DNA of 64,000 bases from Nemertoderma westbladi (lineage: Eukaryota > Animalia > Xenacoelomorpha), in the NCBI GenBank assembly GCA_032718475.1, contig JAUCBJ010008544.1, positions 1 through 64,000 of the forward strand, read 5' to 3'. The notes under the pieces are model-generated. The model saw nothing but the letters and a program-made list of their open reading frames with translations. It searched no databases and was not told the origin of the DNA. The translations under genes were made by a program, and so were the position numbers. Positions 28,591 to 57,359 of this stretch are shown here, in pieces (the stretch's first letter is position 1; every line of letters starts with the position of its first letter).

Positions 28591-28665
28591 TCTCGTGGCG
28601 TAGTGGTCAGATGGTTAAGGCGTTGGTTACATTACGTAGGTTACGAGTTCGAATCCCAGTCGGGA
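28591..28665 (+). ncRNA. tRNA-like Pol III unit inside the 5' LTR of element B
   Basis: A-box-like TGGCGTAGTGG (28596-28606), B box GAGTTCGAATCCC (28645-28657), terminal pairing tctcg/cggga, TTTT at 28674-28677; the anticodon arm is not canonical. Confidence 0.55.
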
Positions 28666-28711
28666 AATTTGTATTTTGGGGCCATTTATTTTCGTGTGTT
28701 GCTAATTGGTA

Positions 28712-28985
28712 GGCCAATGAGAAGCGTACAGCGTAGCGAATGATGAGCCAGGCCAATCATAGGGCATAAATTATCTTATTGCTCAAATGTGAGGCAGTGG
28801 AAAATTCTGTTAGGATTCCATGTCCCAGATTAGTGTAAGGGCTGGACTGCGTTGAACGATGAGCTGGGCCAATCATAGAGCACCGAAGCACTTCATTGCT
28901 CAATGGTGAAGCTGTGGAAAATTCTGTTTAGTTTCCATGTGCAATTTCTAGTATAAAAGGCCGGTTTGCCTTCGGTTATCACACT
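28712..28985 (+). promoter_or_regulatory. Pol II promoter of the element B LTR: three CCAAT boxes (two in a ~116-bp duplicated module) and TATAAAA
   Basis: gccaatgag (~28713), gccaatcatagggca (~28752), gccaatcatagagca (~28868), tataaaagg (~28953). Confidence 0.6.
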
Positions 28986-31634: not shown

Positions 31635-34600
31635 ATGAGTGACATACCCCATTCGACGAGATACCCACCTACCGACTATGACTCGTGCGACCCGGACAGA
31701 TCGACAGTAGACGAACCGAGAAGGAGAACCCGAGATTCCACCGATGTCACACCGCTTGCGTCGCCGGTACCCCGAACGGAAATACCGGAAACCGCAACGC
31801 GTGGCGACGGCAGAATCGAAGATTTCCTTACCGTCCCGCAGACTAGATCGCGGGAACCGGACATGGTAAGTTCGACTGGAAGCCAGGAGAACGTTATTAG
31901 AAGTATAGGAGGACACATGGCCCAGATTACTCGGAACCTCGGAGAAGGTTTTCGCGTTTTACGCGAGTTAACCGCCCCGATGTCGAGATACGAGTTCTAC
32001 ACCTTACAGGTAAGGATAGAAAGTAGGGTACATGCCTCCGTAGATAAACTTAAAGGTTTGCACGAACTTGCAGAGTTGCGTGGCGACAACTTTACTCAGG
32101 TAAAGATAGTAGATAAATTGGTAAGTGCGAGAGAAAGCCTTATCCAGTTTAAGTCGGTGATAAGATTGGCTCAACAGGAGCAGTTTGACCAACTGCTAGG
32201 TGAGTCAGTTTCGGACGCGTTGTTACAACCCGAAGAGGAAGAAGAACTCTACTGCCTGGACGGAAGGTTGGAAACGCTGACCAATTTTCTTCGTAGATGC
32301 GGCGTACCGATCGACGAACCGGAAGTCGAACCACGAGGGACGACGGAAGTTCTCACTACGGAAGGCTCGCGAGCCTACCAACATCCACCACTGGATAGAT
32401 CGTTCGTTAGCGTACGGAGCGACGTTGGCAACGTTGGCGACGTTAGTAGAACAGCGTCTGGAATTACTCGACAACAACAGGAGGTTGCACGCCGACAACA
32501 AGTCGCCGAGGAAGAAGCGCGACACCAGATGGCACAGATCGCCATCGAAGGAGAGAAACAACATAGAGAGGACGAGGCAAGAATTGCACAACTCAAGGCG
32601 CAAGCCGAATTCGAAGCTTCGGAAATGCGCAGACTGGAGGAGGACTTAGCGCGAGAAGCGGCGGCAGCAGCCGACGAGTTAGCACGGAAGAAAGCAGCAT
32701 CCGATGCTCGTGCCAAGTTGGAGGCGCGACAAATAAACGCACGATTAGCTATACAGGAAGCGGAATTAGCGGCACAACAACAAGTAGCGGATCGACGCGA
32801 AAGGGAGATGCAACTACAGTTCGAATTGAATCGTAGATCGCGTGAGACAGCGAACGCGCAAGCGGACCTCGAACTCGACGCGAGAGATAGATCTATAAGA
32901 TCGCGAACTGGACACGACTTGTCTGCCCTGGATCGTATGGAAGCTCGATATCGCGGAATACAGAAGCGGATCGAGGAAGGAAGTGTGGGAGCGATAGATC
33001 GAGGAGAGGAGTTCGTCGAGGATTACTGTAAACGTTTTCCCCAAGTTATTCCTATGCTCAAACCCACGACTCCGATAAAACCGGTCTTCGTTACGAAACC
33101 TAAGGAAATAACGCCTGTGCGTTCGACGCAAGGCAACAGGTTTGTTGTGACGGAATTACCGCAACCTAGGGCGACTTCATCGCCAATTTTAGCAGGTAAC
33201 ATAACTAGTCCACCTACAGTAAGTCGTAGTCTACTTGTAGGAAGAGAGGAACCTGCGTTTATGACCATTAAACAGGTGAGTAAACCATTACAAGTTAAAC
33301 CTGTGACGTGCTGCGCGAACCCAGTCATTTATAAACCTACAGTAGACCTTAACCCTGATGTTTTTACTAGACCTCTCACCCAATGTTTAACGAGACCTAC
33401 GACTTCGTGGAAGGCTTGCGAGCCTGCCGAACAACGGAGAGCCGTAGATCTCAGATCACAACGAACTCGACCAAGGATAATACGCCGGACGCGAACCCGC
33501 CAACCACCTTATCCGGACGACAGCGATTCATCCAGTGACTTGGAGTCGACGGAACGGGAAATATTCCGTACTGGAGCGGCAGCGGCAGCGGATTACAAAC
33601 GGGAGGAACGATCGACGAACCCCTATATTGACAATCCTCCACGAGAAACACCCCAACAGAAACCCACGTTGCAACCAGCGGAAACGATCAGCGCCAAACA
33701 GTTCACCGAGATGACGGACAGAATAGCTCAACTCGAAGAACGACTCGAAGCGCAACCGTCGGATCGATCTCGAACCAGCGTGGAGTTGGAACAACCTAGA
33801 CAACATCGACCACCGAGGAGAGAACAGGAGACTAGACGGACTCCGACACATCGAGAAGATGATCCCGTTAATAATTCCTACCGACGAACAACGCGCGGAA
33901 GGGAGCGACTGGACGACGCCGCCGAACAGGGACGCGGACAGTTGGATTTAGTTAGCGAGATTGCGAAATTCGCGGCTAGACACGGATTACCGGCACAGCA
34001 ACCGCCGAAGTTCTCTGGCAACGCGAAACACTGGCGCACACTGGTAGACTACGTAGAGTCCCAGATCGCTAAGTGTGCTTTCACCTCGACGGAGAAGTTT
34101 AACTACTTGCTCCAAGTTCTGTCTGGTGAGCCGAAACGATTAGCGGAAACCTTTATTGGTGTTCCCGATGCCTTTGAGTTGGCGTACGACCGTTTGTATT
34201 CGATTTACGGCGGTAATGTCGCCATGGCTAAATCCATCATTGAAGACCTCTGCAGAGGAGGCAACATTTCGAGACCGATCGACCTTTTACGACTCGCGGA
34301 CGAAATAAAGAACGCTATAGGGACTTTACGGTCCATTGGACAACTCGAGTACGCTAACGCACCGACGGTTCTCATTCGAATAATCGGTCGACTTCATCAT
34401 CGACTACGACGAGAATGGCGACGCATCGAGTACCAACGCGAAGAGGCCGGAGGGTTATTAAAACTCACCGATGTCTATCAACTTATTTCACGGGAGGCCG
34501 TGATCGAGACTCGATCGAACTATACCGATCACCATATCGCGGCGGAAGGGATAACTGTTTCTGCGCCGAATCGGACAAAACCATTTCCGACGAACGCGAA

Positions 34601-37600
34601 AGCCGTTACTTACGCCACCCCTACTGAGACTTCTAAAGTTCTGACGCCTATCGGCACCACGCAGCCACGACAACAGTTGCCGGCGGACTTTGTGGGATGC
34701 TCATACTGCGAGCGGAACGGCAGAAACCATAGCGGACATAAACTACGTGGATGTCGCGCTTTTAAAGAGTTAGGGATCGAGGAAAGGAGACTCCAAATCC
34801 GATCTCTAGATTCCTGTTGGAGATGTATGAAGCCAGGACACGTCCGGAAGGATTGCCCGAGCGACGATACATGTTCTTTGTGTGGACGTAACCATGACGC
34901 GTTGCTTCACACAACCAGTCATACTCCGACCAGACGCTTTCGACGAGAGCATCCAGATAAAGCGGCTAGATGCGACGCGCTTTATAAGGAGCGTGCGCCG
35001 CGCGAGATCCGTACCTTTTATACCGACTGTATGGATCAGTCAGGATCATCGGACGAGGACGAGGAGGAAGACGACACTTTCTACGTGCATGCAGGTGAGG
35101 AACAGCCATCGATAACGCTCCTCACACAGAACCAATTGAAAGGGTTTAGCGTGATTCCTATAAAGATTACCGGAACCCGAGGGAGCAAGCGTATATACGC
35201 CATCTTAGACTCTGCGTCATCGCATAGCTATGTCGACGAACAAGTAGCCGACGTAGTTACGGACTTGAGTCAAGGTAAGACTGCTCAGTATACTGTAAGC
35301 AGCATGCATGGTAAGAGAGCGATTCCTGTGACGAGAGTAAAACTAACCTTAGACACTCTTCTTTCCAAAGCGGAACACAGCAAGGAGGAGCGCTCATTAC
35401 TTCCGGTAAGAAATTTGACCTTTGCAGCTACGAAGGACTTTAGTAACTTGCTCGGCCCTGTGCCAGAGCAATCACCGGAAGATCGTAAGTATTTCCGACA
35501 CCTTGGAATACCGGAATGTCCTGTCAATTATCGTTCCATTGCGATGTTAATTGGGACAGACCAGTTTAACTTACATCAGGTATGGGAGACACGCCCATCT
35601 GTTATTACAGCAGGCAACCCCTACGCATGTAGAACTCCCATAGGTTGGTATACTAGAGCACCAATACGTTCACTAGAGGTAAGTGACCAGGAGGACGACG
35701 TTTTGAGTACGTGTAGTTTATTGACTAACACGATAGATAATTCTCCTTCACACTCCTGTGGTCCAATTGTACGGACGGCACTACGACAGACTTGCGTCAC
35801 TAACGCGGACGCCACCGATACTGACGTAACCGATCTGGACACGACCATACGGACCTCTGACTTACAACTACTTGCAGTAGACCAGGTTGTATTGACTACT
35901 GAAGACCTGAGGGTTGTTGCTGTGGATGACTCGATGAACGAGGATTTTGGAAGGCTTGCGAGCCTACCGAAAAATCCGAAGGTCATTGACCCCACCCACC
36001 AGGCTTCGACACCGGTCGTTGATCTTGGAAGGCTTGCGAGCCTACCGATAGATCAAGAAGTTGTCAAACCGCCGCACGACAATTCGACGCCGACTAGTGA
36101 CACCGGAAGGCTTGCGAGCCTACCAGACACATTGACACTAGCCACCGCAGCGGACGAAGACGTGGACGAGGACCATGGCGCAGTGCAAGCAGCGTTTGAC
36201 CGACTGCTGACTGAACGGACCATACAATGGTTGGAACAGGACTCAGCAGAACCCGGTAGTTACGAGACCGCTATGTCAGAACAGGAAAAACGGTCATTAA
36301 ATATTATGAGAGATACCATTCGCCAGACTGCGAATGGCCACTATGAGGTTGGTATGTTGTGGCGCGATGGACAACCTAAGCTCGTTAACAATTACCCGCT
36401 TGCTTTGAGGCGACTCAAATCAATAAGGCAGCGATTGTTGCGAGACGAGACGGCCCATATGCAATACAACGCACAACTTCAGACGTATCTCCAAAAGGGA
36501 TACGCCATTAGGATGTTAAATCCTGAGGTAACTACAGACCAGACATATTACCTGCCACATCATTTTGTTCGACACCCGGACAAACCTGGCAAGGTGCGTG
36601 TAGTCAACGACTGCGCTGCGCTTTACCAAGGGATGTCTATGAACAGCGAACTGATGGACGGGCCGAATATGAATAATTACCTCATGGGAGTCCTAATGCG
36701 TTTTAGACAACGCAAAGTGGCTTTCACCTGTGACGTAGAGGCCATGTTTCACCAGGTTAAGGCTTTGGAGCGGGACAGGGACAGTTTGAGGTTTCTTTGG
36801 TATCCGGACGGAAACTTACAACTTCCGCCAGAAACTTACCAAATGCAGGTAAGAGTATTCGGAGCCAGGGACAGCCCCAACTGCACCATGTACGCATTGA
36901 AGCAGACAGCATTGGACAGACGAGACCAATTTGACCCAGAAGTAGTTCGGACCGTGGAACGAGATTTCTACGTGGATGACGGCCTCAAGAGTTGTGACAC
37001 CTTGGAGCGCGCTACAACCGTAGCACACCAACTCCAGGATTGTCTCGCTGAGGGCGGATTTCACCTGACGAAGTTCGCTTCCAACGAACCCGAACTGGTG
37101 AACTCATTTGACCCGACGGATCGTAGCGGAGGTGACTTGGACTTAGACCTAGAACCTCTGCCGACGACCAAAGTATTAGGACTTAGTTGGGACCCTAACA
37201 CCGACAATTTTAGGGTACGTGTAAGGTCCAACGACCAGACTAGACCTCTCACTAAGAGGACTTGCTTATCGACTATGAGTCGATTGTATGACCCATTGTG
37301 TTTCATTAGTCCAGTGATCCTACATGCCAGGATCATACTCCGCAGCATTTGGCAAGCCGGACTGGAATGGGACGATCCCATCCCAGAAAAGTTAGCTGAG
37401 CGATGGAGGGACTGGGAAGCCCAACTGACGTTCCTACAAGACTATACCATACCGAGGGTATACTTTCCTTTACAAACCACCTTTCCTGCCGATTTAGAGC
37501 TTCACAGCTTTAGTGACGCTAGCAAGGATGGATTGGGGGTTACTTTATACCTTAGACGACAAGTGACATCGGACAGCTACGATGTGTCTCTCGTTACTTC

Positions 37601-40400
37601 AAGGGCTAGAACAATGCCATTGAAGTATATGACTGTACCTCGTGGGGAGCTGCAAGCCGGGACGATATCCACCGATATTGTCAGTCTAGTTCAACGCGAG
37701 CTGGAGGCTAACTTGAAGGTCACATATTGGACGGATGCGACGTTGGTACTTTGGTACATAAACAACGAAACATTCGAGTTCAAGACTTTCGTAGCCAACA
37801 GACGGGCTGAAATACTAGACCGGTCGCTCAATCAAGATTGGCGTCACTGTCCAGGGAAGCTGAACCCAGCTGACATCGCGTCACGGGGAATGCAACCACT
37901 TGACTTTTGTAAACCGGACAATAAATCCTTTTGGTTTAGAGGACCCGATTTCCTACAGCGACCATCAGACGAATGGCCACCGTTATTCGACGCGACAACC
38001 AACACCATACCAGAGGGTGCCGAGATAAAACTCGACAAGGTTGTCAAGTCTAAAGCGAAAGCCAACGCCAAGGTCAAAAGGAAAAAAGGACGGACGAAAT
38101 CTGATGACCTGGACGCCAGACCTGACATTACGCCAGACGTCTCGCCAGACACTCGACCAGACGCTTGTACGAATCCTTCGCCGGATGTTCCGCGGGAGAT
38201 TTCACCAGACGTTTCGCCGGATTGTTCACCAGATTACTCGCCAGACTATTCACCAGAAGAGACACCAGATTGTTCTCCGGATTGTTCGCCAGATTGTTTG
38301 ATGGAACTCTCGACAGAATGTCTACCGGACGTCTCACCAGACTGTTCACCAGACATCTCGACAGACTGTCCACCAGACTGTCTACCAGACTTTGAACCAG
38401 ACTTTCTGACAGAAGTTACGCTAGACAGACTTTGGGACCGACGACAGGACATTTCGCCGGATGTTCCGCGCTATGTCTCACCAGACGTCTCACCAGACTG
38501 TTCACCAGACGCTTCACCAGACTGTCTACTAGACACTCCATTAGAAGACCCATTGGAGCGGACATTTAGAGACGTACCAAATTCGACTTCTTTGGACGAC
38601 AGAGATGTGGCCACAGGGATTACACTCCGCTCGAAGAAGGTACTTGACTTACCTACAGGTAAACGTGTGACTAAGGTTAGGAAGCTTACAGGCTCACAGG
38701 AACACACTGACGCTGTAGAGTTGAAACCATTACTGCCAGTCGACACATTAGGTGCGGACGGTAAAGGTAAGACCGTAGAGATTGACGTACTTGGGGACTC
38801 AGACAAACCTACCGGAAGGCCCGTGGGCCTACCAAGTCCAGACAAGTATCCACACTACGACTACACCTTACCCGATGACGTCACTAACACTTACGTTGAC
38901 AGGATAGTGAACCTAACTAGATCATGGACTGACGCGTGCCGCAAGTTAGCATGGCTCAAACGATTGAGACAATATGCCAGAGGCAAACGCGACTTTCCTA
39001 GAAGACTTACCTTAAAGGAAATTGGCCACTGTGAAGTTGATATCATTCGACATTATCAATTGCGATATTTCGCACGAGAGTTCACAGCGATCAAACAAGG
39101 TAAACAGATTAAGTCTTCACCGATTTTGAGTTGGAGTCCGATTATTTACCGGGGCTTACTTTGTCACAAGTCCAGACTCCAAAACATCGACTTTGCACTT
39201 GACTTTAGGTATCCTATCATCATACCGCAACACCATGAGTTACAGCGCGCTATGATACTGGACGCACATGTACAACTCAAACACGTAGGTAGACACCACT
39301 GTCTATCACACTTACGCTCGAGGTTTGTACTGATTAGACCTAGTAAGGCACTGAGTTCAGTAACACGGAACTGTATTATTTGTAAGAAGGTGCACGCGAG
39401 GATAGGACACCAAGAAATGAGTGAACTACCACTAGCAAGATTACAGGCGTTTAGACCCCCTTTCACTGAGACAGGGATAGACTGTTTTGGACCCATAATC
39501 GCGAAACGCGGAAGGGTACAGGTAAAACGTTGGGGATTGATCTTCACTTGCATGGCCAGCAGAGCTGTCCATATAGAGCGAGTGACAGACTTGTCCACCA
39601 ATGCCTTTATCCTAGCCTTACGGCGATTTATCGCTAGACGTGGATTGGTCAAATCCATATACTGCGACCAAGGGACAAACTTTGTGGGTGCACGGAACGA
39701 GATAACCAGAGCTTTGAGAAAATTGGACCAAAACCAGATTTCCGAGGAACTACGTCCTCACCGTATTGTTTGGTTTTTCAATACTCCAGACAGTCCGTGG
39801 AGAGGCGGCGTTTGGGAAAGGCTGATTGGCTCAATAAAGACAGCTATGGCTAAAGTCGTACCGACGCAACACATCTTGACAGACGACCAACTGACGACGT
39901 TACTAATAGAAATCGAAGCAATCTTAAATACCAGACCGATCGCTTTGATCCCAGACAATAACGACGTACAGTTTGCCTTGACACCAGCGCACCTGCTTAT
40001 GCAGGCGCCGACGACACTGTTGCCCATTTCGGTACCCGTTGATAGTGACGGATACGGCAACAAGGCTTGGAAAATCACTCAATTGCTTGCAAATAAATTC
40101 TGGGAAATATGGCAGAAATATTATTTGCCCTCTATTTCGACCAGAACCTCTTGGTATCTAAATACCCGATGTTTAAGACGTGGTGACCATGTTTTATTGG
40201 CTGAAGCTAATCTGAAAAGACGGTTTTGGCTGACTGGAGTCATTTTGACCACGCACCCTACATCTGGTGTAGTGAGGACAGTTACTGTACGGACTATCGA
40301 CGGTCGTACCGTAGACAGACCTGTACAACGTCTCGTACTCCTTGAGGAGACTAGAAACGAGACGGGAGACTACAAATCTCCACCCAATATTAGTAAATAG
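31635..40400 (+). CDS. gag-pol: BEL/Pao Gag-Pol polyprotein (coiled-coil Gag, triple zinc knuckle, aspartic protease, RT, RNase H, integrase), 2921 aa
   Basis: PPKFSGN, CSYC...H...C / CWRCMKPGHVRKDC / CSLCGRNH, AILDSAS, YYLPHH...KVRVVND, FTCDVEAMFHQV, FYVDDG, FSDASKDG, YWTDA, NPADIASRG, GIDCFGP, YCDQGTNFVG, GGVWERLI; uninterrupted. Confidence 0.97.
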   Translation: MSDIPHSTRYPPTDYDSCDPDRSTVDEPRRRTRDSTDVTPLASPVPRTEIPETATRGDGRIEDFLTVPQTRSREPDMVSSTGSQENVIRSIGGHMAQITRNLGEGFRVLRELTAPMSRYEFYTLQVRIESRVHASVDKLKGLHELAELRGDNFTQVKIVDKLVSARESLIQFKSVIRLAQQEQFDQLLGESVSDALLQPEEEEELYCLDGRLETLTNFLRRCGVPIDEPEVEPRGTTEVLTTEGSRAYQHPPLDRSFVSVRSDVGNVGDVSRTASGITRQQQEVARRQQVAEEEARHQMAQIAIEGEKQHREDEARIAQLKAQAEFEASEMRRLEEDLAREAAAAADELARKKAASDARAKLEARQINARLAIQEAELAAQQQVADRREREMQLQFELNRRSRETANAQADLELDARDRSIRSRTGHDLSALDRMEARYRGIQKRIEEGSVGAIDRGEEFVEDYCKRFPQVIPMLKPTTPIKPVFVTKPKEITPVRSTQGNRFVVTELPQPRATSSPILAGNITSPPTVSRSLLVGREEPAFMTIKQVSKPLQVKPVTCCANPVIYKPTVDLNPDVFTRPLTQCLTRPTTSWKACEPAEQRRAVDLRSQRTRPRIIRRTRTRQPPYPDDSDSSSDLESTEREIFRTGAAAAADYKREERSTNPYIDNPPRETPQQKPTLQPAETISAKQFTEMTDRIAQLEERLEAQPSDRSRTSVELEQPRQHRPPRREQETRRTPTHREDDPVNNSYRRTTRGRERLDDAAEQGRGQLDLVSEIAKFAARHGLPAQQPPKFSGNAKHWRTLVDYVESQIAKCAFTSTEKFNYLLQVLSGEPKRLAETFIGVPDAFELAYDRLYSIYGGNVAMAKSIIEDLCRGGNISRPIDLLRLADEIKNAIGTLRSIGQLEYANAPTVLIRIIGRLHHRLRREWRRIEYQREEAGGLLKLTDVYQLISREAVIETRSNYTDHHIAAEGITVSAPNRTKPFPTNAKAVTYATPTETSKVLTPIGTTQPRQQLPADFVGCSYCERNGRNHSGHKLRGCRAFKELGIEERRLQIRSLDSCWRCMKPGHVRKDCPSDDTCSLCGRNHDALLHTTSHTPTRRFRREHPDKAARCDALYKERAPREIRTFYTDCMDQSGSSDEDEEEDDTFYVHAGEEQPSITLLTQNQLKGFSVIPIKITGTRGSKRIYAILDSASSHSYVDEQVADVVTDLSQGKTAQYTVSSMHGKRAIPVTRVKLTLDTLLSKAEHSKEERSLLPVRNLTFAATKDFSNLLGPVPEQSPEDRKYFRHLGIPECPVNYRSIAMLIGTDQFNLHQVWETRPSVITAGNPYACRTPIGWYTRAPIRSLEVSDQEDDVLSTCSLLTNTIDNSPSHSCGPIVRTALRQTCVTNADATDTDVTDLDTTIRTSDLQLLAVDQVVLTTEDLRVVAVDDSMNEDFGRLASLPKNPKVIDPTHQASTPVVDLGRLASLPIDQEVVKPPHDNSTPTSDTGRLASLPDTLTLATAADEDVDEDHGAVQAAFDRLLTERTIQWLEQDSAEPGSYETAMSEQEKRSLNIMRDTIRQTANGHYEVGMLWRDGQPKLVNNYPLALRRLKSIRQRLLRDETAHMQYNAQLQTYLQKGYAIRMLNPEVTTDQTYYLPHHFVRHPDKPGKVRVVNDCAALYQGMSMNSELMDGPNMNNYLMGVLMRFRQRKVAFTCDVEAMFHQVKALERDRDSLRFLWYPDGNLQLPPETYQMQVRVFGARDSPNCTMYALKQTALDRRDQFDPEVVRTVERDFYVDDGLKSCDTLERATTVAHQLQDCLAEGGFHLTKFASNEPELVNSFDPTDRSGGDLDLDLEPLPTTKVLGLSWDPNTDNFRVRVRSNDQTRPLTKRTCLSTMSRLYDPLCFISPVILHARIILRSIWQAGLEWDDPIPEKLAERWRDWEAQLTFLQDYTIPRVYFPLQTTFPADLELHSFSDASKDGLGVTLYLRRQVTSDSYDVSLVTSRARTMPLKYMTVPRGELQAGTISTDIVSLVQRELEANLKVTYWTDATLVLWYINNETFEFKTFVANRRAEILDRSLNQDWRHCPGKLNPADIASRGMQPLDFCKPDNKSFWFRGPDFLQRPSDEWPPLFDATTNTIPEGAEIKLDKVVKSKAKANAKVKRKKGRTKSDDLDARPDITPDVSPDTRPDACTNPSPDVPREISPDVSPDCSPDYSPDYSPEETPDCSPDCSPDCLMELSTECLPDVSPDCSPDISTDCPPDCLPDFEPDFLTEVTLDRLWDRRQDISPDVPRYVSPDVSPDCSPDASPDCLLDTPLEDPLERTFRDVPNSTSLDDRDVATGITLRSKKVLDLPTGKRVTKVRKLTGSQEHTDAVELKPLLPVDTLGADGKGKTVEIDVLGDSDKPTGRPVGLPSPDKYPHYDYTLPDDVTNTYVDRIVNLTRSWTDACRKLAWLKRLRQYARGKRDFPRRLTLKEIGHCEVDIIRHYQLRYFAREFTAIKQGKQIKSSPILSWSPIIYRGLLCHKSRLQNIDFALDFRYPIIIPQHHELQRAMILDAHVQLKHVGRHHCLSHLRSRFVLIRPSKALSSVTRNCIICKKVHARIGHQEMSELPLARLQAFRPPFTETGIDCFGPIIAKRGRVQVKRWGLIFTCMASRAVHIERVTDLSTNAFILALRRFIARRGLVKSIYCDQGTNFVGARNEITRALRKLDQNQISEELRPHRIVWFFNTPDSPWRGGVWERLIGSIKTAMAKVVPTQHILTDDQLTTLLIEIEAILNTRPIALIPDNNDVQFALTPAHLLMQAPTTLLPISVPVDSDGYGNKAWKITQLLANKFWEIWQKYYLPSISTRTSWYLNTRCLRRGDHVLLAEANLKRRFWLTGVILTTHPTSGVVRTVTVRTIDGRTVDRPVQRLVLLEETRNETGDYKSPPNISK

Positions 40401-41136
40401 ATGTGGGACCTTTGTTGGCCGCCACATAGACCTACTGTATTTTAGTTATTTGTATTTGTATTACTGTACGTGCATTTGTAATCCTCTTCACTGTAGATAG
40501 AGACAGCGGTGGAATTCCATTGTCTTTATACGTGAACATGGAGGGTAGTACCCTTATGTATCACATAGGAGCGGGATTGTGTGTACAGTAGGAATGGAAT
40601 TCCACTTGGAACCCACAAGTGAGACAATTTTCAAAAATTATTAGACAAATCCATTTAGTTGGATTTAAATTTAAGAAAAACGATTCTCCAGTGAAAGCAA
40701 ATTCTAGAATACAGCTAGATAAAATTAAAATTGGGGAGGACAAGAGCGGATGGAAGGCTTGCGAGCCTACCGATAAATTTTTTTTGGAAAAAGAAAATCG
40801 GTCTTGTTCTACGTAGTCGTGTCTACTATTATTTAGACCGAATTAATTCTCGACTGCACTATTTTTCTTGGGAAATGTAGCTTGGGAAATTAAAAGGTGA
40901 GTATTTTAGACTCGCGGCTAGTTTACCCGGAATTCGTTTTTTATCGGCACAATTTTTTGGATTAGGGGCCAGTGCGAAATCACGCGAACCCGAAGTCATT
41001 AGGCAAAATGGGTTGGGGTTTAGAGCAGAGTTGAGCCAAAAGCCAACAAACTCTGGAGTCACCTCACATCTAACCTCTATTTTGTGCTTCATCTAGTAGA
41101 AACGTAACGATATGTAACCGCATATATTCGTATACA

Positions 41137-43896
41137 ATGGTGGAGAAGATGTATAAAGAGTTACGTCAAGGGTTTACGCAAGAACAGGAGCACCAGGCAC
41201 CATTCAATCGTTATGGAGCTAAAAACTTTAGTGTGTTTGGAGTGGAGAGTATGGCTAGGAGTACGGCCAAGCTCGCTAAATCCAAGGCGGACCCGAATGT
41301 TACGCGACAGCGGTTGGACGCATACAACAAAAGAACGGAGGAATTACGCGCGGAATACAATGCGTTATATCCCTACGATGCGTTATGCGACGCTAGCGAC
41401 ATTTGCGAGGATCCAGACACCGAAATACGCCGATTGTATCATACGCTGCAATATTTGACGGTAAACGAACCTTTACCTGCAGCTAGAGACGAATTTGAAG
41501 GAATGCATCTTTATAGACGCGCTCGAGGAGCGGATCCAGAGACCAAGGACGCGTTTTCCGTATACAAACTGTTTTATAAATGTGGAGCGTGTATGCGCGA
41601 GCAAGACAACGCGATTCCTATGCGGTTGAACTCGGAGAACCCCGAGCCGATATTAGCGCGATGTTCACACCACCAAAGTCTACGTTACCAAGAAGGCGGA
41701 TACCCTTTGACAAATCCGTATCATTCATTTAAGATGAGTGGACCGAACGCGGGTGAGATCGTTATTTACGAACCTAAATTAGTCGAACCAGACGTCTACA
41801 GCATGGTAGTGGACGAGTCTAACAAGTCGACACAAGAGAAACGGGAAGCTTTGAGCCTCTACAGGGCGTACAAGGCGTACGAGAAAGGCGAGATCGAGGA
41901 GTTCGGCGGAAGGCTCAAAGGATACTTTAGAGAGTATAACACGCTAAAAACTGGGACGGGTTATATCTCATATCTGATGTTCAGTTGGGATTACAAGGAG
42001 AGTAAGAGGAACAAATACACGGACGTATACGGAGAGGGAGATACCCCCGGCGTAAACGAGTTCGAGTCACAGTTGAAGTGGCGAGGTTGCGTGTATTGGG
42101 CGATTACTTCACCTCCGCGGATAATCTTGCAATACTATTTAGCGATAGAATCTTCGGTTAACGTTTGTTTCATCGCGGACGTAGTATCCAGAACCTTAAA
42201 GCGACACCCGTTATGTCTTGGCGAAGGACATACCTTTTACGATGGAGGAAGGACGCATACTGATGTATTCCGACGATTTCTCCAACCCTTTTATAACACC
42301 GATGCGCACTGCGAAGTTTTCACGCGAGCGGGACTTAGCGTTTTCAGGGACGTCTATCTCACTCACGCGGGAAGTCTAGTCGACAGACCGTCGATGTTAA
42401 CGTTAGTACCCTATGACGGGGAACGCCACGCGGAATTCGAACGCCCGGAAGGATCCTGGAAGGCTCGCGAGCCTACCGCCCATCATGACGATGTGGATCC
42501 GACCGAGTTGGCGCTAATAGACGAACCGTTACGGCAACTCATAGAAATAGAAGAGAACCTTCCAAGGAAGACGCGAACTGAGATACGCGAGTTAGAGAAA
42601 AGCGATGCCATGGTTTGTGTACAACCTACGGAGACGAACATACCGACTGACCCGGATGATGAGAATTATCACGTGGACGGTAGCGCTCGCCCCATCGGAG
42701 ACCTCATCTATGAGCGAGTTTGGTATCCTGCCAACACTATTTGTGGCAGATGTGGAGCAACTGGCCATCACGCAAAGAAGTGCGGAGCGAAGCACATATC
42801 TCTACCGGATTTAGTATGCAACTGGTGCGGGGATCAACGTTCGCACACTTTCTACACTTGCTGGCGTTTCGTGGCGCAGTGTACTTATTGTAATATTAAG
42901 GGCCATAGGGCATCTGAATGTCAACTTAGAGACGTCCCCTATGAGCACATGTCAGTTAAAATCGTTCGACAATTATTCGACCATTGGGAGGATCTAGCAG
43001 ACGAGCATGTATCGACGCAGCGACGCCGCTTCCCTATGAGAGCACATTTGGGATTTTGGGCCGTAAACCCTCTCATAATGTCAAAGGAAGGATATGTATC
43101 GGCTATGCCTCAGTACGATGAATTGTTGGAGGTATTGGATATATTGCCGTTGGACAGTGGATTCAAAGTTGTGCGGGACTATTTCTTACAAGTGCACCCG
43201 GACAACAAGAATACTTGGAACTTTCAAACTGTGGTGAACAAGATTACCGCCGGAGAATTCGATAAACTGCGAGTTGAACAGCGGAATCGAGGAGCCTGGC
43301 ATTCGATAGCTTGGGCATACCGGAGCGCATTTTATCACAAACGCGTAACCTCGTGCATTCTGGACGAGACCGACGTTTTGCGTGAGACTGGCTTCAAGGC
43401 CACGCCGTTAGCGGAGAAGACGCGTCACCCACAGGATGATCAGCAATTTCGTATACTCAAAGCCCAGAAGGCCGGACAAGAGATTAAGAAGATAGTGAAT
43501 GTCGCCGAGAGGACGACATCGAAGTCGCAAATCCGGATGACTCGGGGCACGGTTTCCCTTGCTAGAGAACCACGCGGAGGGACAGGATACGCTTTGACTG
43601 AACCCATTAGGATTCAAACGACGTCAGAGAGCGAGGTGTCAACGGACGGAACAGTCCTACCCTTTCGACTTCCTCCTAGCGTTGTAGAAACTCGATCCGA
43701 TGTTAAGTCGACAGTTGGAATCGGACGAGGATTTAGAGGATTGAGCGCACGACGGATGTGCGAAACTCCCGTCGTCCCCTTTCCTAGCGTTTTGGAACCA
43801 CCGACGACTCGACGCCGAAGTCCGAGCCCAGTTCGACCTCGACCACCCCCCAATCGCACTAGAGGACGTGGACGAGCCCGCTCAGCGAAGGAATAG
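41137..43896 (+). CDS. Accessory ORF2 of element B, 919 aa, three CCHC zinc knuckles and an Arg/Ser/Pro/Gly-rich C-terminus; function unknown
   Basis: Long uninterrupted ORF between pol and the 3' LTR; CGRCGATGHHAKKC, CNWCGDQRSHTFYTC, CTYCNIKGHRASEC; good start context (acaATGg); upstream acceptor ctaac...ctctattttgtgcttcatctag (41070-41096). Confidence 0.85.
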   Translation: MVEKMYKELRQGFTQEQEHQAPFNRYGAKNFSVFGVESMARSTAKLAKSKADPNVTRQRLDAYNKRTEELRAEYNALYPYDALCDASDICEDPDTEIRRLYHTLQYLTVNEPLPAARDEFEGMHLYRRARGADPETKDAFSVYKLFYKCGACMREQDNAIPMRLNSENPEPILARCSHHQSLRYQEGGYPLTNPYHSFKMSGPNAGEIVIYEPKLVEPDVYSMVVDESNKSTQEKREALSLYRAYKAYEKGEIEEFGGRLKGYFREYNTLKTGTGYISYLMFSWDYKESKRNKYTDVYGEGDTPGVNEFESQLKWRGCVYWAITSPPRIILQYYLAIESSVNVCFIADVVSRTLKRHPLCLGEGHTFYDGGRTHTDVFRRFLQPFYNTDAHCEVFTRAGLSVFRDVYLTHAGSLVDRPSMLTLVPYDGERHAEFERPEGSWKAREPTAHHDDVDPTELALIDEPLRQLIEIEENLPRKTRTEIRELEKSDAMVCVQPTETNIPTDPDDENYHVDGSARPIGDLIYERVWYPANTICGRCGATGHHAKKCGAKHISLPDLVCNWCGDQRSHTFYTCWRFVAQCTYCNIKGHRASECQLRDVPYEHMSVKIVRQLFDHWEDLADEHVSTQRRRFPMRAHLGFWAVNPLIMSKEGYVSAMPQYDELLEVLDILPLDSGFKVVRDYFLQVHPDNKNTWNFQTVVNKITAGEFDKLRVEQRNRGAWHSIAWAYRSAFYHKRVTSCILDETDVLRETGFKATPLAEKTRHPQDDQQFRILKAQKAGQEIKKIVNVAERTTSKSQIRMTRGTVSLAREPRGGTGYALTEPIRIQTTSESEVSTDGTVLPFRLPPSVVETRSDVKSTVGIGRGFRGLSARRMCETPVVPFPSVLEPPTTRRRSPSPVRPRPPPNRTRGRGRARSAKE

Positions 43897-45707
43897 GAAG
43901 CGAGTGGAAGGAAGGCTTGCGAGCCTACCGATTTGGATATTATATTTGGATATTATATTTGGATATTATATTTGGATATTTTATTTGGATATTTATATTG
44001 GACATACCTAAAGAGGTGAGGTCTCTATAGGGGTGTGTCCAACAGGCGGCGGCGGACTCGTGAGGGTCTGGGGGCACGTTAAATCAATATATAGTGCTAG
44101 GGAGTCACTGAAGGCCCTCGTGTCTAGCGAACCATGAATCGACATGGTGCCGTGGTTCCGTCTAGTCGGCCTGTTGCCGTACTGCCAGTCCTGTACACAG
44201 TAGGGGTGGTGGCATGGCGTGATTTGTGGTTCATGTGGCGTGAACTATGTTTTGTATGTGGGCGATCAGTGGCAGTTTGCTTGGGGCTTGGATGGGTTCC
44301 TTTGGCCATCAGCTGTTCCGTTTTTTTGATACTATATGTTATTGTCTCCATGTTCAGCTGATTGGTCTTTGGGATTTGTTCGGGTCTTTGAGCTTTCTGT
44401 TGCTGTGGGTACGTGAGTACATGTGATTGTATGTGTGGCCACTGCGAGTGAGTATGGGAACCCTTGCCAGTTGGTCCAGATGCCGCTGGTATTAGTAGGA
44501 CCATATCTCTACTGCGCCTCAGCATACTTTGTGCACACAAAGTTATTTTGCCCTGTCGGCAAAATAAGGTACTCTCGATTAGCCTGTTAGTCGATACAAT
44601 TTGTCCCCTCTGATTTGACCCCGATTTTGTCTTTACCGATTTTGTCTCTGTGTGTGCATGGTATGTGTTCGATTTGTGCTTACCGTTGTGTACTTGATTT
44701 CGTGAACATCTGTTGAGTACACGTGTACAGTGACTGGTAAGTGGTTACTTGTTCAGTAGCTTTTGAGCTACAGACAGTATTGTCTTTTCAATACTGCCGG
44801 CGAGGCAGGTGAAAACGTGTCAAAATTCCATGTTGGGTAGCGCAAGCCCATGTGGGACAAGACCGTCGGTTAGGCCCAAGGGCGACCTTGGTGCTCGATC
44901 GCTATCGACTGGTCCACCTGCCGGTTGACTCTTTGTTATACTTTGAGTTGGCTCAATGTACAGTCAGGCCACAGTAAGTTGACAGTAGCCGCCCATCTGG
45001 CTACACGTTCGACGAGCTGTGCCGGTGTGATCGGGGGACCGAAAACAGAACCCGGGAAGCATCGGACCACCCTCCGGCCCAGTCTGATAATAACAAGCAG
45101 TCAGACTGGCCCCAGGGGTGGTGGAAAGGTGTCCGCCTTGTGGGTGCGCCTCCGGGAGGAGCCCAGAAGGACACAAGCGTATGTTTGAATGTTGGGTTTG
45201 GAGGAGCGAGATATGGAAGGAAGGCTTGCGAGCCTACCGTTAGCAATTAGTGCTCAGGAGAAGATATCCAGACCAGCAGGACGAACTTTTTAGATCGTCA
45301 GGAGGACTCATTTGAAAGTTATTAGCGCATTATGTTTATATTATATTTGGACAGATTTAATTTGGTGAAGGTTTATTATGTATATTTACAATATATAAAG
45401 ATTTATCGAAAGAGTTTGATTTATTTGTTCGATTTGTTTTGATTTATTTGTTCTGATTTGTTTAATTTGTTTACCTTGATAACCGAAAGCCTTTTTTTGT
45501 ATTTTAGGCACTAAAGTTAATTCGTAAATTTGTATTTGTATGTACGATCGATTGTATTTACGCCGTATCTGCAATATTAAGTATGCAATAATTAGATAGT
45601 GATTATATTTTATATTTTAGGCCCTACCAGTAAATTTAGAAATAGTTTGTAGATATTTTATATTTTGATTGGTGAAAACAGTCTTACTTACTGTTTTCAT
45701 GGAGCGG

Positions 45708-47970
45708 TGATGAATTATTTCACTATAAGGTAGCATTTGTAGTTTAACTTTAACGTAAAAACTTTTGAAAATCCGACGTATTTTGATTAAGTTACAGTAA
45801 TGTAATATGCCTATTCATATTTGTACACATAAAACCCTTAGGTACTCTCGTGGCGTAGTGGTCAGATGGTTAAGGCGTTGGTTACATTACGTAGGTTACG
45901 AGTTCGAATCCCAGTCGGGAAATTTGTATTTTGGGGCCATTTATTTTCGTGTGGTGCTAATTGGTAGGCCAATGAGAAGCGTACAGCGTAGCGAATGATG
46001 AGCCAGGCCAATCATAGGGCATAAATTATCTTATTGCTCAAATGTGAGGCAGTGGAAAATTCTGTTAGGATTCCATGTCCCAGATTAGTGTAAGGGCCGG
46101 ACTGCGTTGAACGATGAGCTGGGCCAATCATAGAGCACGAAGCACTTCATTGCTCAATGGTGAAGCTGTGGAAAATTCTGTTTAGTTTCCATGTGCAATT
46201 TCTAGTATAAAAGGCCGGTTTGCCTTCGGTTATCACCTTCTCTGTTAATCATCCTGATTATCGTTTATTCTTGTAAAATTAGTTAATTCGGTTTCTTGTT
46301 GAAACTTTATTTGATAAATCCTTTTGTAAAACTGTAAATATACTGCAATTTCCTGACATGTTTTCTTTTGGTCCGACTTCGGGACAGCCGAACACCAGGG
46401 AGATGGCAGCCTAGATCGTTAGGCCGTAAGCAACGCAGGGAAGGGATGTCCACAACACGCTAGCGCCCACATTGGATCGACCGCGCACCCCCTTTGCCCC
46501 TTCGAAATGCTCAACTTGCTATGCAGCGCCCGCTTTGTGAGAAGGTAAGACTTTGTTCGACGCCCTTGCCCGCCGTAAGACCTATAGATCAGGGTAAGCG
46601 TGACACCGTACTGGACGCCGCAAATTTAGGATCAAATAATTATATCCAGACACCCCCCCCCCTTTGTCAAGTCCTACGAATCCCTGGGTTAACCTGTACT
46701 TCCTACAGGTGCGAACTATTGCCATTCGTCAGTACGCGAGTACATATTAGGTACGGACAGCATACGTTCCATAATTTAGTGATTCATAGCACTGACTGTT
46801 TGGTACCGGTTCGCTTTGTAGAACGTACATTAGTACCCCCCCCCCCCCCTGTCTGGAGTTAGCTATTTGATCAGGCAAGGAGCATTTCTGCTACCGGCAC
46901 ACTGCTTGGCCTAGGGAGGTTTATTAATATCCTACCGCGCCTTGCCACGTACTGATAGGTATTGCTGCTAACTACCGCAGCAACAAAGTTCTAGAATTAA
47001 ATTAGTATACCAGATCAGCTAACGTACGGTAGCGATTAACCCCTATTCTTATCTTACAACCAGAATCTGGTATTAGTGCCGATCACGGGTGTAGTTACTA
47101 ACACTGTGGTTGCCCATTGGGTTGTGGATAGGAAGGAGAGAGCTTTGACGTCATTCGTGAGTATAAAGTTCTACAAACGCGACTAGTTTATTTTAGTAGC
47201 TAGCGCACGGTATCATTTTAGTCAGAAAATCACTAAAACCTAGTAAAAGGAATTACACGAAATTGTTTTATTTGTAACACACCCACACACACACGCCCTA
47301 AAACATATCGCCCTTAAAGTTCTACTAGCTATAGCGTACTATACATTACTTTAGGTGGAAATTATCTGTATTTGTAAAATTAGGATCTGATTTAGTTGCG
47401 GCAAGATAAGGAGTATTTCACTTTCGTTATTAAACTGTTGTTTGTCTGGACAACGGTATTGTTACATTTAGGCCTGACCTTTTAGACTGATTTCGTACAG
47501 GGGGATCAGTTATTGTTACATTTAGGCACGACCTTTAGGCTGATTTCGACAGGGATGATCAGCATTGTTACACTAGGTCTGTTAACCACCTAGTTCGTAT
47601 ATAACCCATATAAATCACACCGCGGCAAGTTACTGTATTTAGGACTGTCAGTGATAGTTAGGATTCGCTGCGCGGGGATTGTTTTCCCGTGAGTTTGGTC
47701 TGTTACTGTAACTGTACATCTGCCTCACCGGTTAGAGGACAGGTATCCTTCTGTCTAGTACGTAGGCATTAGACCCGCTCACGTACATAGAATAGATACA
47801 AGGCTCTGTTCCTCGCCAGTAGTCGTTTGTGTACTATATCTGTTTGTTTAGATATCCTGGACTGGGATTTGTTGTCAGATACTGTACAAGCCCGTATACA
47901 TTACTAGAGTCTCATAGTAAGATACATCGTTACTAGGATCTGGTAAGCGGTATACTACTGGACCCTTACA
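45708..47970 (+). repeat. 3' LTR of element B (2263 bp)
   Basis: Near-identical to 28453-30713; preceded by a short purine tract ggagcgg. Confidence 0.97.
45846..45920 (+). ncRNA. tRNA-like Pol III unit, second copy (3' LTR of element B)
   Basis: Identical to 28591-28665. Confidence 0.55.
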
Positions 47971-50644
47971 GAAGGCGTGCCTCCCGTTTCTGAATCTGAG
48001 TAGGACCTCGCTCCCTGAGTTGTAGATATTGGGACCCTCTAGCAGATAATCGTTTAGGCATTTGCCATTGGTCTTAGCCGATGCGTCAACTACCATCCGC
48101 AGTTTACCTTTCTTCGGGTCTAGAGCCACGTGAAGTGGTAGGTTATAGGTCCTGTCCGTGTTCAGTTCGTCGACCGGTAACTCCACGGCCCATCCTTTCT
48201 CGACGTACTTCCTTATTGTCTTATGGATGTACTCATCCTTTTCGGGGCTCCGTTTCAGCGTTTGCTTCAGTTTGCGAAGCCTCGTGAGTACCATCCTCTT
48301 GTTGTCAGGCAACGGTATCTTCGGCTGTTTCCATACCATGCCTATGGTGTACCGTCCCTCCTCACATCTCATGGACTCCTTCACACTTTGTATTGCCTGT
48401 TTATCTTCTACCGAGGTTCCGACCCCGGTCTCTTTCAATCCCTCAAAGTCCTGCCAAAGTAGTCTCCTGAGCTGCTCCTCCGCTCCTTCATCTTCCATCT
48501 CCCTCATAGTTCCCGCGAACATGCACCCTGATGTCTCCGACATCCTAAACGGAATCTTGGTCCTGATCGGGCTGCTTAGCGTCCACCCGAATGATGTTAA
48601 AATTGCCACCGGGTCACGCTATCCGTCTTTGCCGAAGACAGTCTGCATTCTCTCGTGGGCCGTCGGGCAGTCCATTCCTACTATAATGGATACCTTCCTA
48701 ACGTCCACCTCTGGTATTGAGAAATCGATACCATCCAGGAATCTATATTGTTCGACTTCGATGTTGGTTGGTCGCCTGGCGTTGATATTTATCGACTCTA
48801 TCACCTGGATGGGGTCGATGGTCGCCCCATAGTCGCATCCCGGTGCTATCGCTGCTATCGCGCACACTATCTACTTGGCCTCGTCTTCAATCCTATCTCT
48901 TCGGCCACCCAATTCTCGACCAATGTGAAGGCTGCTCCACTGTCGACCAGCATTAACGTGGTTACTGATCGATCGCCTTCTCCGATCACCCTCACTGGCA
49001 CTACCCCGAGTAGCACCATTCCTCTCTTCTTCGCCCCTACAGTGCTTGTCGCCATTGTCTGGCCTTTGCCTTGACCAAACTTAACTGGTGTTTCTTTACA
49101 CTCCTCAACCTTGTGTCCCCCTATCACACATCGGTGACAAATTCCATTCTTATCCGCATAGGCTTTCCGGTCCTGTTCGGGTAACGCCTGCCAATGCTTA
49201 CAGTACATGGTCTTATGGGTTCCGTCTTTATATAATTGACATTCATATTCTGGGTTATAGCGTTCCCTATATAACCCTACACTTATTGCGCGTAGGTTTA
49301 CATCTACCGGCTTAGTGTTTTGGTTATTTGGCCTACTGGGTGTGTTGGGGTTATATTTGTTCATGTTGTTATTTTTTCCCCGTTCGTGCCACAGTTTGGC
49401 CCCACTTCCGGCTATCTGTGGACTTGCAGTCCCCTGTGTCGCCGCGTATGGTAGGGCTTGTCTTAATTTTGGAAACGCATTCGCCGCGTTATGCTCTATC
49501 CGTAATATGCTGTAACCGTACGGTTACACCAGTCTTGGGTCTGTCGTCCGGTCCCTGTAAGTGGGGTATCAACAAACGTTTCCATAACTTCTGGCTCCCC
49601 GTAAACACTACCCGAGCCAGCCTCACTCTCTGATAGCCCCAACTGCGCCAGTTCTAGTCGGCGCTTCTGTTTGGCCTGATATTGCATAAGCCCCCTTAGC
49701 CAGGCATGCATATCATCCCACACACGCTTTCCCGTTCTCTCTCTCTCTATCCTCTCGCAAACTCTGGTTCGCTAACTCTGTTTCTCTCGCCACCCGCTCT
49801 CTACGTTCATTTGTTTCTCTCGTTTCTCGCTCTTTGCACTCCTCTTTCTCCCTCTTGTGCTCCTCTTTCTCCCTCTCTTCTCGCTCCTTGCGCTCCTCTT
49901 TCTCCCTCTCTTCTCGCTCCTTGCGCTCCTCTTTCTCCCTCTCTTCTTGCTCCCTACAGTTCCTGGCCACCCTCTCGACTCTCTCTTTACACTCCCTCGC
50001 CAACTCTCTCTCTTTCTCTAGCAACGCAGCTCCCTCTTCCAACTACCTCTCTAACTCTTTCTGGTCTATTTCTAACACCCTTCTTACTTTTGCGGAGGAT
50101 GTAGCGGACTTGTTGGTCGCGACGGACTCCCGTCGCCTCTCTGTCCTACTAACTTTCCCCCGCTTTCTGGGGTCCTCGCTAACCGACGAGACCGAATCCT
50201 CGGGGTTAATCTCGGATTCGCCTTCGTGCGGGTCTGCCCAACCCACTAACTTAATTCCCCTAGCATCCACTAAATACGGCCCTATGTACACAACTTGGGG
50301 CTCCATAATCCCGGATCGCCACAGTTCAAATATTTCGGTGGCGACCCCCCTCGCTCTCTCACTGGCTAGTTCTCCCTGTCCGAAGCGAACTAGGTATGTA
50401 AAATGTTTATTCGACTCACCTAGTCGCCGACTCAACTTCCCTTGGTCTATCTTTACTCCTTCCCTGGCCTCCTTAAGTTGCTTCTTTGTTGCGTTGTAGG
50501 CTCATCGGAGCCGGTCACAGGTTCCGACGTCCTCGTCGCCGACCTCTCCTCCTCCCCTCCTGGTTCGGCGTCGTACCGGCGGCCCCACCTTCGCCGTTCC
50601 GGTGGGCCGTCCGTCGCCCTCGGCCTGTGGCTGGCCGGCGACAT
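47971..50644 (-). pseudogene. Element A gag, protease and RT N-half; disrupted by several stops/frameshifts
   Basis: E/K/R coiled coil (49713-50042), CQLYKDGTHKTMYC / CHRCVIGGHKVEEC knuckles, MLVDSGAAFT protease, YNLPLH...KLRMVVDAS...LNDYLLEGPN. Confidence 0.85.
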
Positions 50645-52060
50645 CGGTACTACGAGCGCCGTTGTGCATCGACTCCTCCTCCTGTTGTGGTAGACGGCCG
50701 CCCTCCGCTTGGGCTACCGGATCGTTCCTTTCCGGCGAGTCCGGTGTTGCGGGTCGATACCGTCGCGGTGTAAAAGCTTTTGCGGATATAACCAGTCATT
50801 TTTCTCCGTAATGAACTGTTTAGTTGTTTTAGCGGACATAACAAGCCATTTTCTGCCGCAATATGCCTAATACTCTAAAAGACTGGAACTCCGATGACGA
50901 AATCTGTCAGCTGGTTTACTGTACACGTGGAGCCTCTCTTTGTTCAGGCTCGGCCAATCAGAGCGATTTTCATTTAATCTTGCACAGAGGCCTACGGAAA
51001 ACCGCGCAATGCATTACGGTCTTTGTTTACCTTTCTGAGCGAGAACAACTGCTTGGAAATTCTTCTGTACTTCTGTGTTGGAAGTTTCAGACTTTGGCCA
51101 ACATTAGACGGCTTTGATTATAAGAACGTAAATCTATTATCCTGTCAACTTGTCAACTGGCTGACTGCACTGTGCAACTGTGCAACAAACCATAACAACT
51201 GCACCTGGCTGCAACTGCGGTACCGACATACTGACTTTCACCACATTATTTTACTTCTGTTTACTGTCTGTTATTAATGGTTATATGTTGATGGATATGT
51301 TGTTATATTTGGAGAATATCGATAAATAATCATAAAACCCCTATCTTCTTGATTACTGAAGGTAAGAGGGACCTGTTACCAGTAGCAATTGCGACTTACA
51401 TTACAGTGGTTTTAGTGTGCATTAAATGCTATTTCATAATCCCTACATGTGTCAGTTGCTATCCTCCTTATATATGGTTAAATTCAGTGACGGTCGGCAG
51501 ATCAGTGTGCAGCAGTGTGAAGTCGTATGCAGCAGTGTGACAGATAATAAAGCATCTCCTAAGGAATGCGCTATTTACGAAAATCAGTAGCCATCTCGTT
51601 GTGTTTAGTATAAGTCATAACTCTGTTTTATACTTAAAGCGCCACGTCCTAAAGGAACTGTTGATATTTCCCCGAAAGTGAATAATATTGTCAGAGATTA
51701 TAAAGTAACGATCAATCGAATAATACAGTAGGTCTGCAACGCAATAACTTCGAAGCACCCGAATCCAGTCTCCCTTAACTGTGGGTGAATGATCGCGCAT
51801 AGACTGACTTCGGCTAATGTTACTTCATGTGCATTAAATAATTGTTATAGGCTAAAGTCGATTTATAAACAAGAAGACACCTAAAATTGGCAGGTTAAAC
51901 TGCTAAAGGTCTGAAAGCGCGAACACGTGGATCGTTTCGTTCGTATCGTCCGGGGTCCGCGGCGGTGTCGTCTCTCCCTTTAGATTTCGGGCTTCGCTCA
52001 TCCTTTAGTCTTTGATGGTGGCTGGCAGTCACAGCTTTAGCAGTTGTCTGATTTTCGTAC

Positions 52061-57036: not shown

Positions 57037-57359
57037 TTAATTCTTAAATAAAGGAGGACATTCCCCTTTAGAAACATCTAAATCCGCCACTGTAGGTGAT
57101 TGTAATTAATATACAGAATATGTATGTACATATGTACCTATATACACTACCTACCTACATATATATATTTATACAATATACCATGGAAATTTGAATTTCC
57201 CTCTCACTAACACGAAGTTCGTATTATATATTTTTTTATGTTTCATGTCCCCTTAGGGACTCCATTTACTGTATTTCTGCAAAGCTTACCGGTATTTCTA
57301 ATTTAGTCGTCTAATTTAATTTAGTTTAAATTTCATGCGTAACTTTGTAATAATTTCCC

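Follow-up and report, generated by a model that had tools for sequence, protein, structure and literature searches.

The window analysed here is a 64,000-nucleotide stretch of DNA from Nemertoderma westbladi (Xenacoelomorpha; GenBank assembly GCA_032718475.1, contig JAUCBJ010008544.1, positions 1 to 64,000 of the forward strand), and it contains at 28453-47970 a long terminal repeat (LTR) retrotransposon of the BEL/Pao type, 19,518 bp in length. Behind its gag-pol open reading frame (ORF1) lies, in the env position, an intact second frame (ORF2, 919 aa, 41137-43896) that is maintained by purifying selection, as judged from the variants found among copies of the family, that carries zinc knuckles without resembling an envelope protein, and that shares its element with ten copies of a 20-nt hairpin. 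We propose, with a confidence somewhat short of an even chance, that ORF2 is an accessory protein predicted to bind the unspliced RNA of its own element, in the manner of CERV, a protein of the Ty3/gypsy-class element Cer1 of Caenorhabditis elegans. An earlier note on this DNA had described ORF2 as the candidate partner of the hairpins in a Rev/Tat-like system. All positions are those of the window, and the features of the element are given on the + strand.

ORF2 in the copies of the family and as a protein

The element stretch, or part of it, is present in six of the nine listed sequencing runs, and runs X1, X3, X4 and X5 were analysed. Three DNA runs, from three studies, yielded 3084, 1519 and 78 contigs on ORF2, with 30 of 30 bins along the frame covered, and since these contigs span all bins ORF2 is regularly present in what is a diversified family, the summed contig depth over it not being a copy number. 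Variants were taken from 40 of 301 rows, picked on support, with 36 of them coding and four upstream. Among the 36 coding ones listed, 31 are synonymous, against 11.9 expected when the same base changes are placed at random ORF2 sites (p ~6e-11, indicative only because the rows were selected on support and share ancestry), which gives a crude ratio of nonsynonymous to synonymous polymorphism (pN/pS) of 0.08. ORF1, used as a control, showed 21 synonymous variants out of 28 (crude pN/pS 0.14), and reading ORF2 in its two shifted frames left 3/36 and 5/36. The first 280 codons hold 27 of the 36 listed variants, 23 of which are synonymous, so that the N-terminal region is itself constrained. Four indels were listed, two of them in ORF2, one being in-frame and the other a frameshift of low share. 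Codon usage of ORF2 correlates with that of ORF1 (r 0.62), the value for the neighbouring Helitron-like ORF being -0.13. Neutral evolution between copies had been named in the earlier note as a ground on which its reading would fall; with ORF2 under purifying selection that objection is removed, and it is the view of ORF2 as a neutral fragment that falls.

The frame runs, as described before, with zero internal stops, the chance of a stop-free run of such length being ~6e-22. Its product consists of ~530 N-terminal aa without an assigned domain, the knuckles, a predicted helical region of ~190 aa and a low-complexity Arg/Pro-rich tail. The zinc-knuckle cluster (42742-42921, aa 536-595) comprises two canonical CX2CX4HX4C knuckles, at aa 536-549 and aa 582-595, while the middle one of the three CCHC knuckles that had been announced (aa 561-575) turned out to be a variant, CX2CX5HX4C; the Pfam zf-CCHC model gives 19.2 bits on the isolated knuckle segment, under its cut-off of 20.8. 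Another Cys/His motif, CxxC...CxHH, is found in the N-terminal part at aa 149-179. The sequence quoted earlier as an RS/RG tail is indeed present, but that name is overstated because the last 30 residues, with 10 R, hold just two RS/SR and two RG pairs; the tail is basic and proline-rich, its composition is Arg/Pro-rich, and it forms no RS domain.

ORF2 showed neither a transmembrane nor a signal stretch (the top 19-residue Kyte-Doolittle mean is 1.48), in agreement with the lack of signal peptide and membrane anchor noticed previously, and profile and sequence searches returned no match to F-type or gB-type glycoproteins; the description of ORF2 as a non-env protein is thereby upheld. No gag Pfam domain was matched in it, comparison with ORF1 by tblastn remained at chance level (E 1.1 or worse), and its knuckle spacing is unlike that of ORF1; by these comparisons ORF2 is not a copy of the gag of its own element. 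A broader view, according to which ORF2 would be a diverged env, a gag duplicate or a captured fragment of the host that drifts neutrally, could appeal to its env position and to the env-like character of the extra ORFs recorded for BEL/Pao elements (PMC8742986, PMC13524379). It is nonetheless largely refuted, and retains a very small probability, in view of the missing transmembrane stretch, the chance-level similarity to ORF1, the strong purifying selection and the fact that protein searches found no host-gene homologue.

Homology searches found no homologue of ORF2 aa 120-520 (near-length forms) or aa 555-790 (shorter forms) among 5.8 billion proteins, none of aa 101-488 among 1.84 billion representatives, and none of ORF2 among PDB sequences; PHROG and Pfam segment searches gave chance-level matches except for zf-CCHC, and no relatives were found in metagenome or viral contigs. 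The ESM Atlas offered no usable match to aa 130-450, and to aa 510-790 knuckle-protein clusters only (<0.9), a mere lead. Single-sequence AlphaFold2 models reached a mean predicted local distance difference test score (pLDDT) of 34.7 for the whole protein and 34.1 for aa 205-415, and Foldseek on these models gave TM-scores by query of at most 0.23, which is noise; the fold searches are uninformative because the alignment-free models failed (pLDDT ~34). The orphan status of ORF2 may reflect sampling, since animal transposon proteins of genomes without annotation seem to be scarce in such databases, as suggested by the ceiling of ~40% identity among 120 of the 678 matches to the integrase region of ORF1, the named ones being nearly all animal.

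Such a protein might also be an enzyme of unrecognised fold, a nuclease, a deaminase or an RNA-modifying enzyme, that its knuckles would target to RNA. The N-terminal half, the most clearly constrained part of ORF2 (23/27 synonymous), would suit this view, as would its Cys/His motifs and a helix-flanked beta-sheet predicted at low confidence, and the exonucleases and esterases among the ORF3s of rotifer elements provide a precedent (PMC5408684). However, those ORF3s are strongly homologous to their families, while ORF2 had no enzyme-family match in Pfam, PHROG, PDB-sequence, phmmer or language-model searches, and an enzymatic role is on balance unlikely.

Splice signals and the repeated 20-nt hairpin

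A branch point, a pyrimidine tract and an AG at 41070-41096 make up the predicted splice acceptor of ORF2. Of 93 candidate AGs it comes second in pyrimidine count, or first if only those with a branch-point motif are considered, and just 22/1000 spacer shuffles contained such an acceptor, so the signal pointed out in the earlier note is present and above chance. The four GTAAG donors also indicated there are all found: that at 29289-29294 lies in the LTR and is predicted only, that at 31489-31494 in the leader has a perfect consensus, and those at 29338 and 31565 are candidates by sequence motif. The leader contains three AGGTAAG motifs, as opposed to 0.25 expected, and 0/1000 shuffles have as many. 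Another candidate donor of perfect consensus, at 40897-40902 in the ORF1-ORF2 spacer, lies 200 nt 5' of the acceptor and would define an alternative 200-nt intron; 0.005 such donors are expected per 300 nt, as calculated after seeing it. Throughout the internal region, strong donors number 16 on the sense versus 6 on the antisense strand.

When 29289 is joined in silico to 41097, the ATG at 29251 comes in frame with ORF2 and yields 945 aa; past the acceptor and ahead of the ORF2 ATG stands an ATG-TAA start-stop (41112). The ideas that the spacer holds a coding exon, or that ORF2 is extended at its N-terminus, were rejected, as just 16 open codons precede the in-silico junction, and 3/4 variants 5' of the ATG are non-synonymous. 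Of the listed runs, none is recorded as RNA; X5, which is guessed to be RNA, has four contigs on ORF2, none over the acceptor, and provides no evidence either way.

The 20-nt hairpin occurs ten times in the element between 32360 and 45238, always on the + strand, and in none of the shuffles. Three copies had already been seen, at 40752-40771 in the ORF1-ORF2 spacer, at 42458-42477 inside ORF2 (aa ~441) and at 43910-43929 directly past its stop; these are confirmed, and to them are added seven more, none being expected by chance. Within ORF1 they are located at 32360-32379 (phase 2), at 33409-33428 (phase 1), in a triple with 78-nt spacing at 35949, 36027 and 36105 (35949-36124, phase 0) and, in the ORF1 region, at 38814-38833, the last lying at 45219-45238 in the 3' untranslated region. 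The occupation of all three ORF1 phases argues that the constraint acts on the nucleic acid, and the copy at 38814, with a different loop, has both sides of its stem altered in a compensatory way that keeps the pairing. For each variant the predicted fold has a 5-bp stem and a loop of 4 nt, plus an A-A mismatch and two additional pairs, at -7.6 to -9.6 kcal/mol. All variants are moreover fully self-complementary via G-U pairs, with a predicted dimer energy of -31 to -35 kcal/mol, and this dimer is weaker on the minus strand in three of four variants tested. Since this G-U pairing suits the + strand RNA, a role at the RNA level is favoured. Membership in an Rfam family was rejected (0 matches). 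In searches of other contigs the hairpin turned up in two metagenome sequences and no viral one, and the two are treated as chance matches because they are single copies, in GC-rich contigs with no similarity to the element.

The same energies bear on a reading in which hairpins and ORF2 are separate, the 20-mers pairing with one another, or being read by the knuckles of Gag, so as to dimerise, compact and package the oversized genomic RNA, and ORF2 acting as a general RNA chaperone or as a counter-defence protein against host silencing. Dimers are predicted to be far more stable than the hairpin, all three loop variants being self-complementary, although a calculation of this kind makes a self-dimer of every near-perfect hairpin. 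Copies are evenly spaced with the tandem triple merged post hoc (p ~0.005), but this regularity is lost otherwise (p 0.12). Retroviral packaging and dimer signals usually reside near the 5' end, where no hairpin copy is found. For Ty1 RNA dimers, palindromic sequences have been proposed as mediators, and also as binders of protein (PMC4974528). Taken together, these considerations leave a separate function for the two parts a possible, if minority, explanation.

A further reading takes ORF2 as an anti-silencing or transcription factor similar to VANC of the Arabidopsis VANDAL elements, which would read the palindrome as double-stranded DNA. The likeness resides in an accessory protein of a transposon which itself carries several copies of a short motif paired with that protein, and VANC targets are frequently tandem repeats (PMC5735166); the 14-bp core of two hairpin copies is a perfect DNA palindrome, the motif forms a tandem triple, and the element is not CpG-depleted (observed/expected ratios of 1.18 and 1.36, versus 0.60 in the Helitron-like ORF). 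VANC, however, belongs to a DNA transposon and binds DNA, whereas the motif described here looks RNA-structured and its pairing with ORF2 is a candidate only. CCHC knuckles favour single-stranded nucleic acid, the commonest hairpin variant is asymmetric, which suits one-strand G-U pairing, and the ten copies share one orientation with none in the LTR promoter, all of which renders a VANC-like factor quite improbable.

Proposed role of ORF2

In the CERV-like reading that we prefer, a leader or spacer donor would be joined to 41097, producing a spliced subgenomic ORF2 mRNA. CCHC knuckles bind single-stranded RNA in nucleocapsid biology, and the knuckles and basic tail of ORF2 would do so likewise. 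As the predicted genomic RNA of ~18 kb carries many strong donors, it would need protection or help in export, as Cer1 RNA does with CERV; ORF2 would accordingly shield the unspliced RNA of the element from splicing or aid its exit from the nucleus. Hairpins, placed every ~1-3 kb, would be its loading sites, which is the weakest step and, taken as a claim of its own, a doubtful one. About as doubtful is the fuller proposal, that ORF2 and the hairpin form a cognate pair in which a BEL/Pao protein of new fold would recognise response elements dispersed over the full 18-kb genomic RNA and license export or compaction of an oversized retroelement; if true, the pair would represent an independent invention of Rev-like control, with a dispersed instead of a single response element.

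Several observations weigh against the CERV-like reading. Concerning the protein, (i) ORF2 has two loose matches to export-signal-like motifs, fewer than the 6.2 that 1000 shuffles contain on average, (ii) with 919 aa it is much bigger than an adaptor requires, which leaves ~530 aa unexplained, and (iii) its knuckles and tail are barely sampled by the listed variants, whose rows are not independent. The splice signals, even if better than chance, make the spliced message a prediction only. Regarding the hairpins, none is found in either LTR or in the leader (28453-32359 and the 3' LTR), seven of ten lie 5' of the acceptor, the other three would stay on the predicted spliced message, and the three knuckle motifs of Gag could themselves read the motif. 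An arrangement of hairpins adjoining splice donors was also rejected, since their proximity reached p 0.02 in one of nine sense-strand tests and 0.10-0.47 in the rest, and is not robust.

Family copies contribute to the same side. One contig in X3 and one in X4 contain a DNA joint that skips 41700-43765 (2066 nt, with all knuckles), so derivatives without the ORF2 core exist, which weighs against an obligatory cis link of ORF2. Joints from 43640 or 43840 to ~43907, with aligned sides of just 21-24 letters, suggest that the ORF2 tail is <80% alike in some relatives. On the other side, joints in X1 and X4, with sides of the same 21-24 letters, place a hairpin 3' of a diverged ORF2 on the same contig, and constitute weak evidence of co-occurrence.

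The Rev/Tat-like system suggested in the earlier note is therefore only partly retained: a selected non-env ORF2 with above-chance splice signals stands, while Tat/TAR and the strict layout of the Rev response element (RRE) do not. ORF2 resembles lentiviral Rev/RRE and Tat/TAR in its basic Arg-rich segment, its predicted spliced message and a structured element in the genomic RNA. On the contrary, the hairpin is not Tat/TAR-like, as no copy lies in the LTR and hence none in R to act as a TAR analogue; different from the RRE, the hairpins are dispersed, not confined to an intron, and also present on the predicted spliced message; and different from Rev, ORF2 has no clear export signal. Rev and Tat are, in addition, several times smaller than ORF2. 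Thus, ORF2 falls outside Tat/TAR and strict Rev/RRE and may work in a CERV- or Rev-like way.

The host element, its surroundings and known systems

The 5' LTR (28453-30713, 2261 bp) and the 3' LTR (45708-47970, 2263 bp) have TG...CA ends, and a GAAGG target-site duplication stands just before the former and just after the latter. Their alignment shows 12 differences in 2266 columns, eight of these being single-base indels, and the insertion is accordingly young. ORF1 (31632-40400, 2922 aa) contains DUF1759, three Gag knuckles, the third of which is CCHH, reverse transcriptase (RT), Peptidase_A17, integrase H2C2 and DUF5641; Pfam matches Peptidase_A17 (1.6e-39), DUF5641, DUF1759 and integrase H2C2, matches RT weakly (E 0.1) and gives no match to a protease domain. 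The order gag, RT, RNase H region and integrase, with Pao-type domains, is that of BEL/Pao elements, and the paired LTRs with their TG...CA ends and target-site duplication place the element in this class. No canonical primer-binding site is evident at 30714-30760, just behind the 5' LTR, where the sequence does not start with the usual TGG; self-priming was rejected, the longest complement, 10 nt, being near chance level.

Other features of the element were noticed in passing. U3 of both LTRs contains a tRNA-like stretch (28590-28670 and 45845-45925) with A-box/B-box-like motifs recognised by eye; it is called by neither ARAGORN nor Rfam, its folding z is -1.3, and it could be a SINE (short interspersed nuclear element) remnant or a Pol III promoter. 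A repeat of 12-nt period at 38129-38545, coding for units rich in (S/T)PD that separate the RNase H region from the integrase, is one of several long insertions behind the 2922-aa length of ORF1. The 3' untranslated region (43930-45707, 1.8 kb) includes short repeats of the TTTGGATAT type and a segment skewed towards T, and is bypassed in some contigs by joints from ~43981-44005 to 45180-45187. The CpG ratios given above were obtained for the element ORFs within 31635-43896, the Helitron-like ORF being depleted. The young element sits inside an older, frameshifted BEL/Pao-like element on the minus strand (25543-28452 and 47971-50800).

Elsewhere in the window, the intact Helitron-like ORF (167-8122, 2651 aa) matches PIF1 helicase, Helitron_like_N and, at its C-terminus, GIY-YIG, and its N-terminus looks OTU-like by eye. 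A 571-aa non-LTR-type reverse transcriptase ORF (14810-16525) has 62-nt tandem repeats on either side. An intronless 367-aa sulfotransferase ORF (57354-58457; PF13469, 2e-18) in repeat-rich surroundings is possibly a retrocopy or a horizontally acquired gene. Long inverted repeats composed of a unit of 49 nt (55094-56785 and 60440-60604), with a near-perfect palindrome of 79 bp, resemble miniature inverted-repeat transposable elements or foldback elements.

Compared with BEL/Pao elements (Belpaoviridae) in general, the one described here shares LTRs, a single gag-pol ORF with Peptidase_A17, DUF1759 and DUF5641, the target-site duplication and an extra ORF after pol, and differs in that this ORF is not env-like, in its ten dispersed palindromic hairpins and in that its LTR is not immediately followed by an evident primer-binding site. 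Its 19,518 bp and 2.26-kb LTRs lie outside the descriptive range of 4.2-10 kb, with LTRs of 0.2-1.2 kb, given by the profile of the International Committee on Taxonomy of Viruses (ICTV; PMC8742986) and likewise by de la Chaux and Wagner (PMC3118150), whose supplements carry element sequences and lengths that could bear on the claims of size and novelty.

The closest likeness in function is CERV, a 517-aa orphan translated from a spliced mRNA and required for the export of unspliced genomic RNA, which has a Cys-rich candidate RNA-binding finger with a C4-type loop, a candidate export signal and exons common with gag (PMC10309623, where the term stem-loop is absent). Both it and ORF2 are large accessory proteins that LTR retrotransposons encode and that have no known relatives, and the function of CERV is the one proposed for ORF2; unlike CERV, ORF2 is a separate ORF after pol, has CCHC knuckles and is assigned its function by prediction only. 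With this precedent, a Rev-like retrotransposon protein would not be categorically new. Non-env extra ORFs have been described as well in LTR elements of bdelloid rotifers, where the ORF3s typically derive from spliced messages (PMC5408684), and in the giant Burro/Ogre elements (PMC6431247). They have in common with ORF2 that a family-specific extra ORF 3' of pol replaces env; their elements are retrovirus-like or gypsy-type, and domains can be recognised in many of these ORFs, while ORF2 has knuckles only.

Neither a non-env second ORF with CCHC knuckles nor dispersed hairpins were found for BEL/Pao in the literature searched, which included few subscription papers and to which Repbase, Dfam and GyDB were external. 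According to the ICTV profile, BEL/Pao replication is poorly understood, and the extra genes mentioned are env-like only (PMC8742986). The strongly constrained N-terminal region of ORF2, for which the databases gave no relative, may represent a new domain. Should binding by ORF2 fail, the repeated palindrome would still be a candidate dispersed signal for dimerisation or packaging, and, together, a conserved orphan protein and its 20-nt candidate target would provide a testable handle on how the unspliced, double-sized RNA of an LTR retrotransposon may be exported or packaged.

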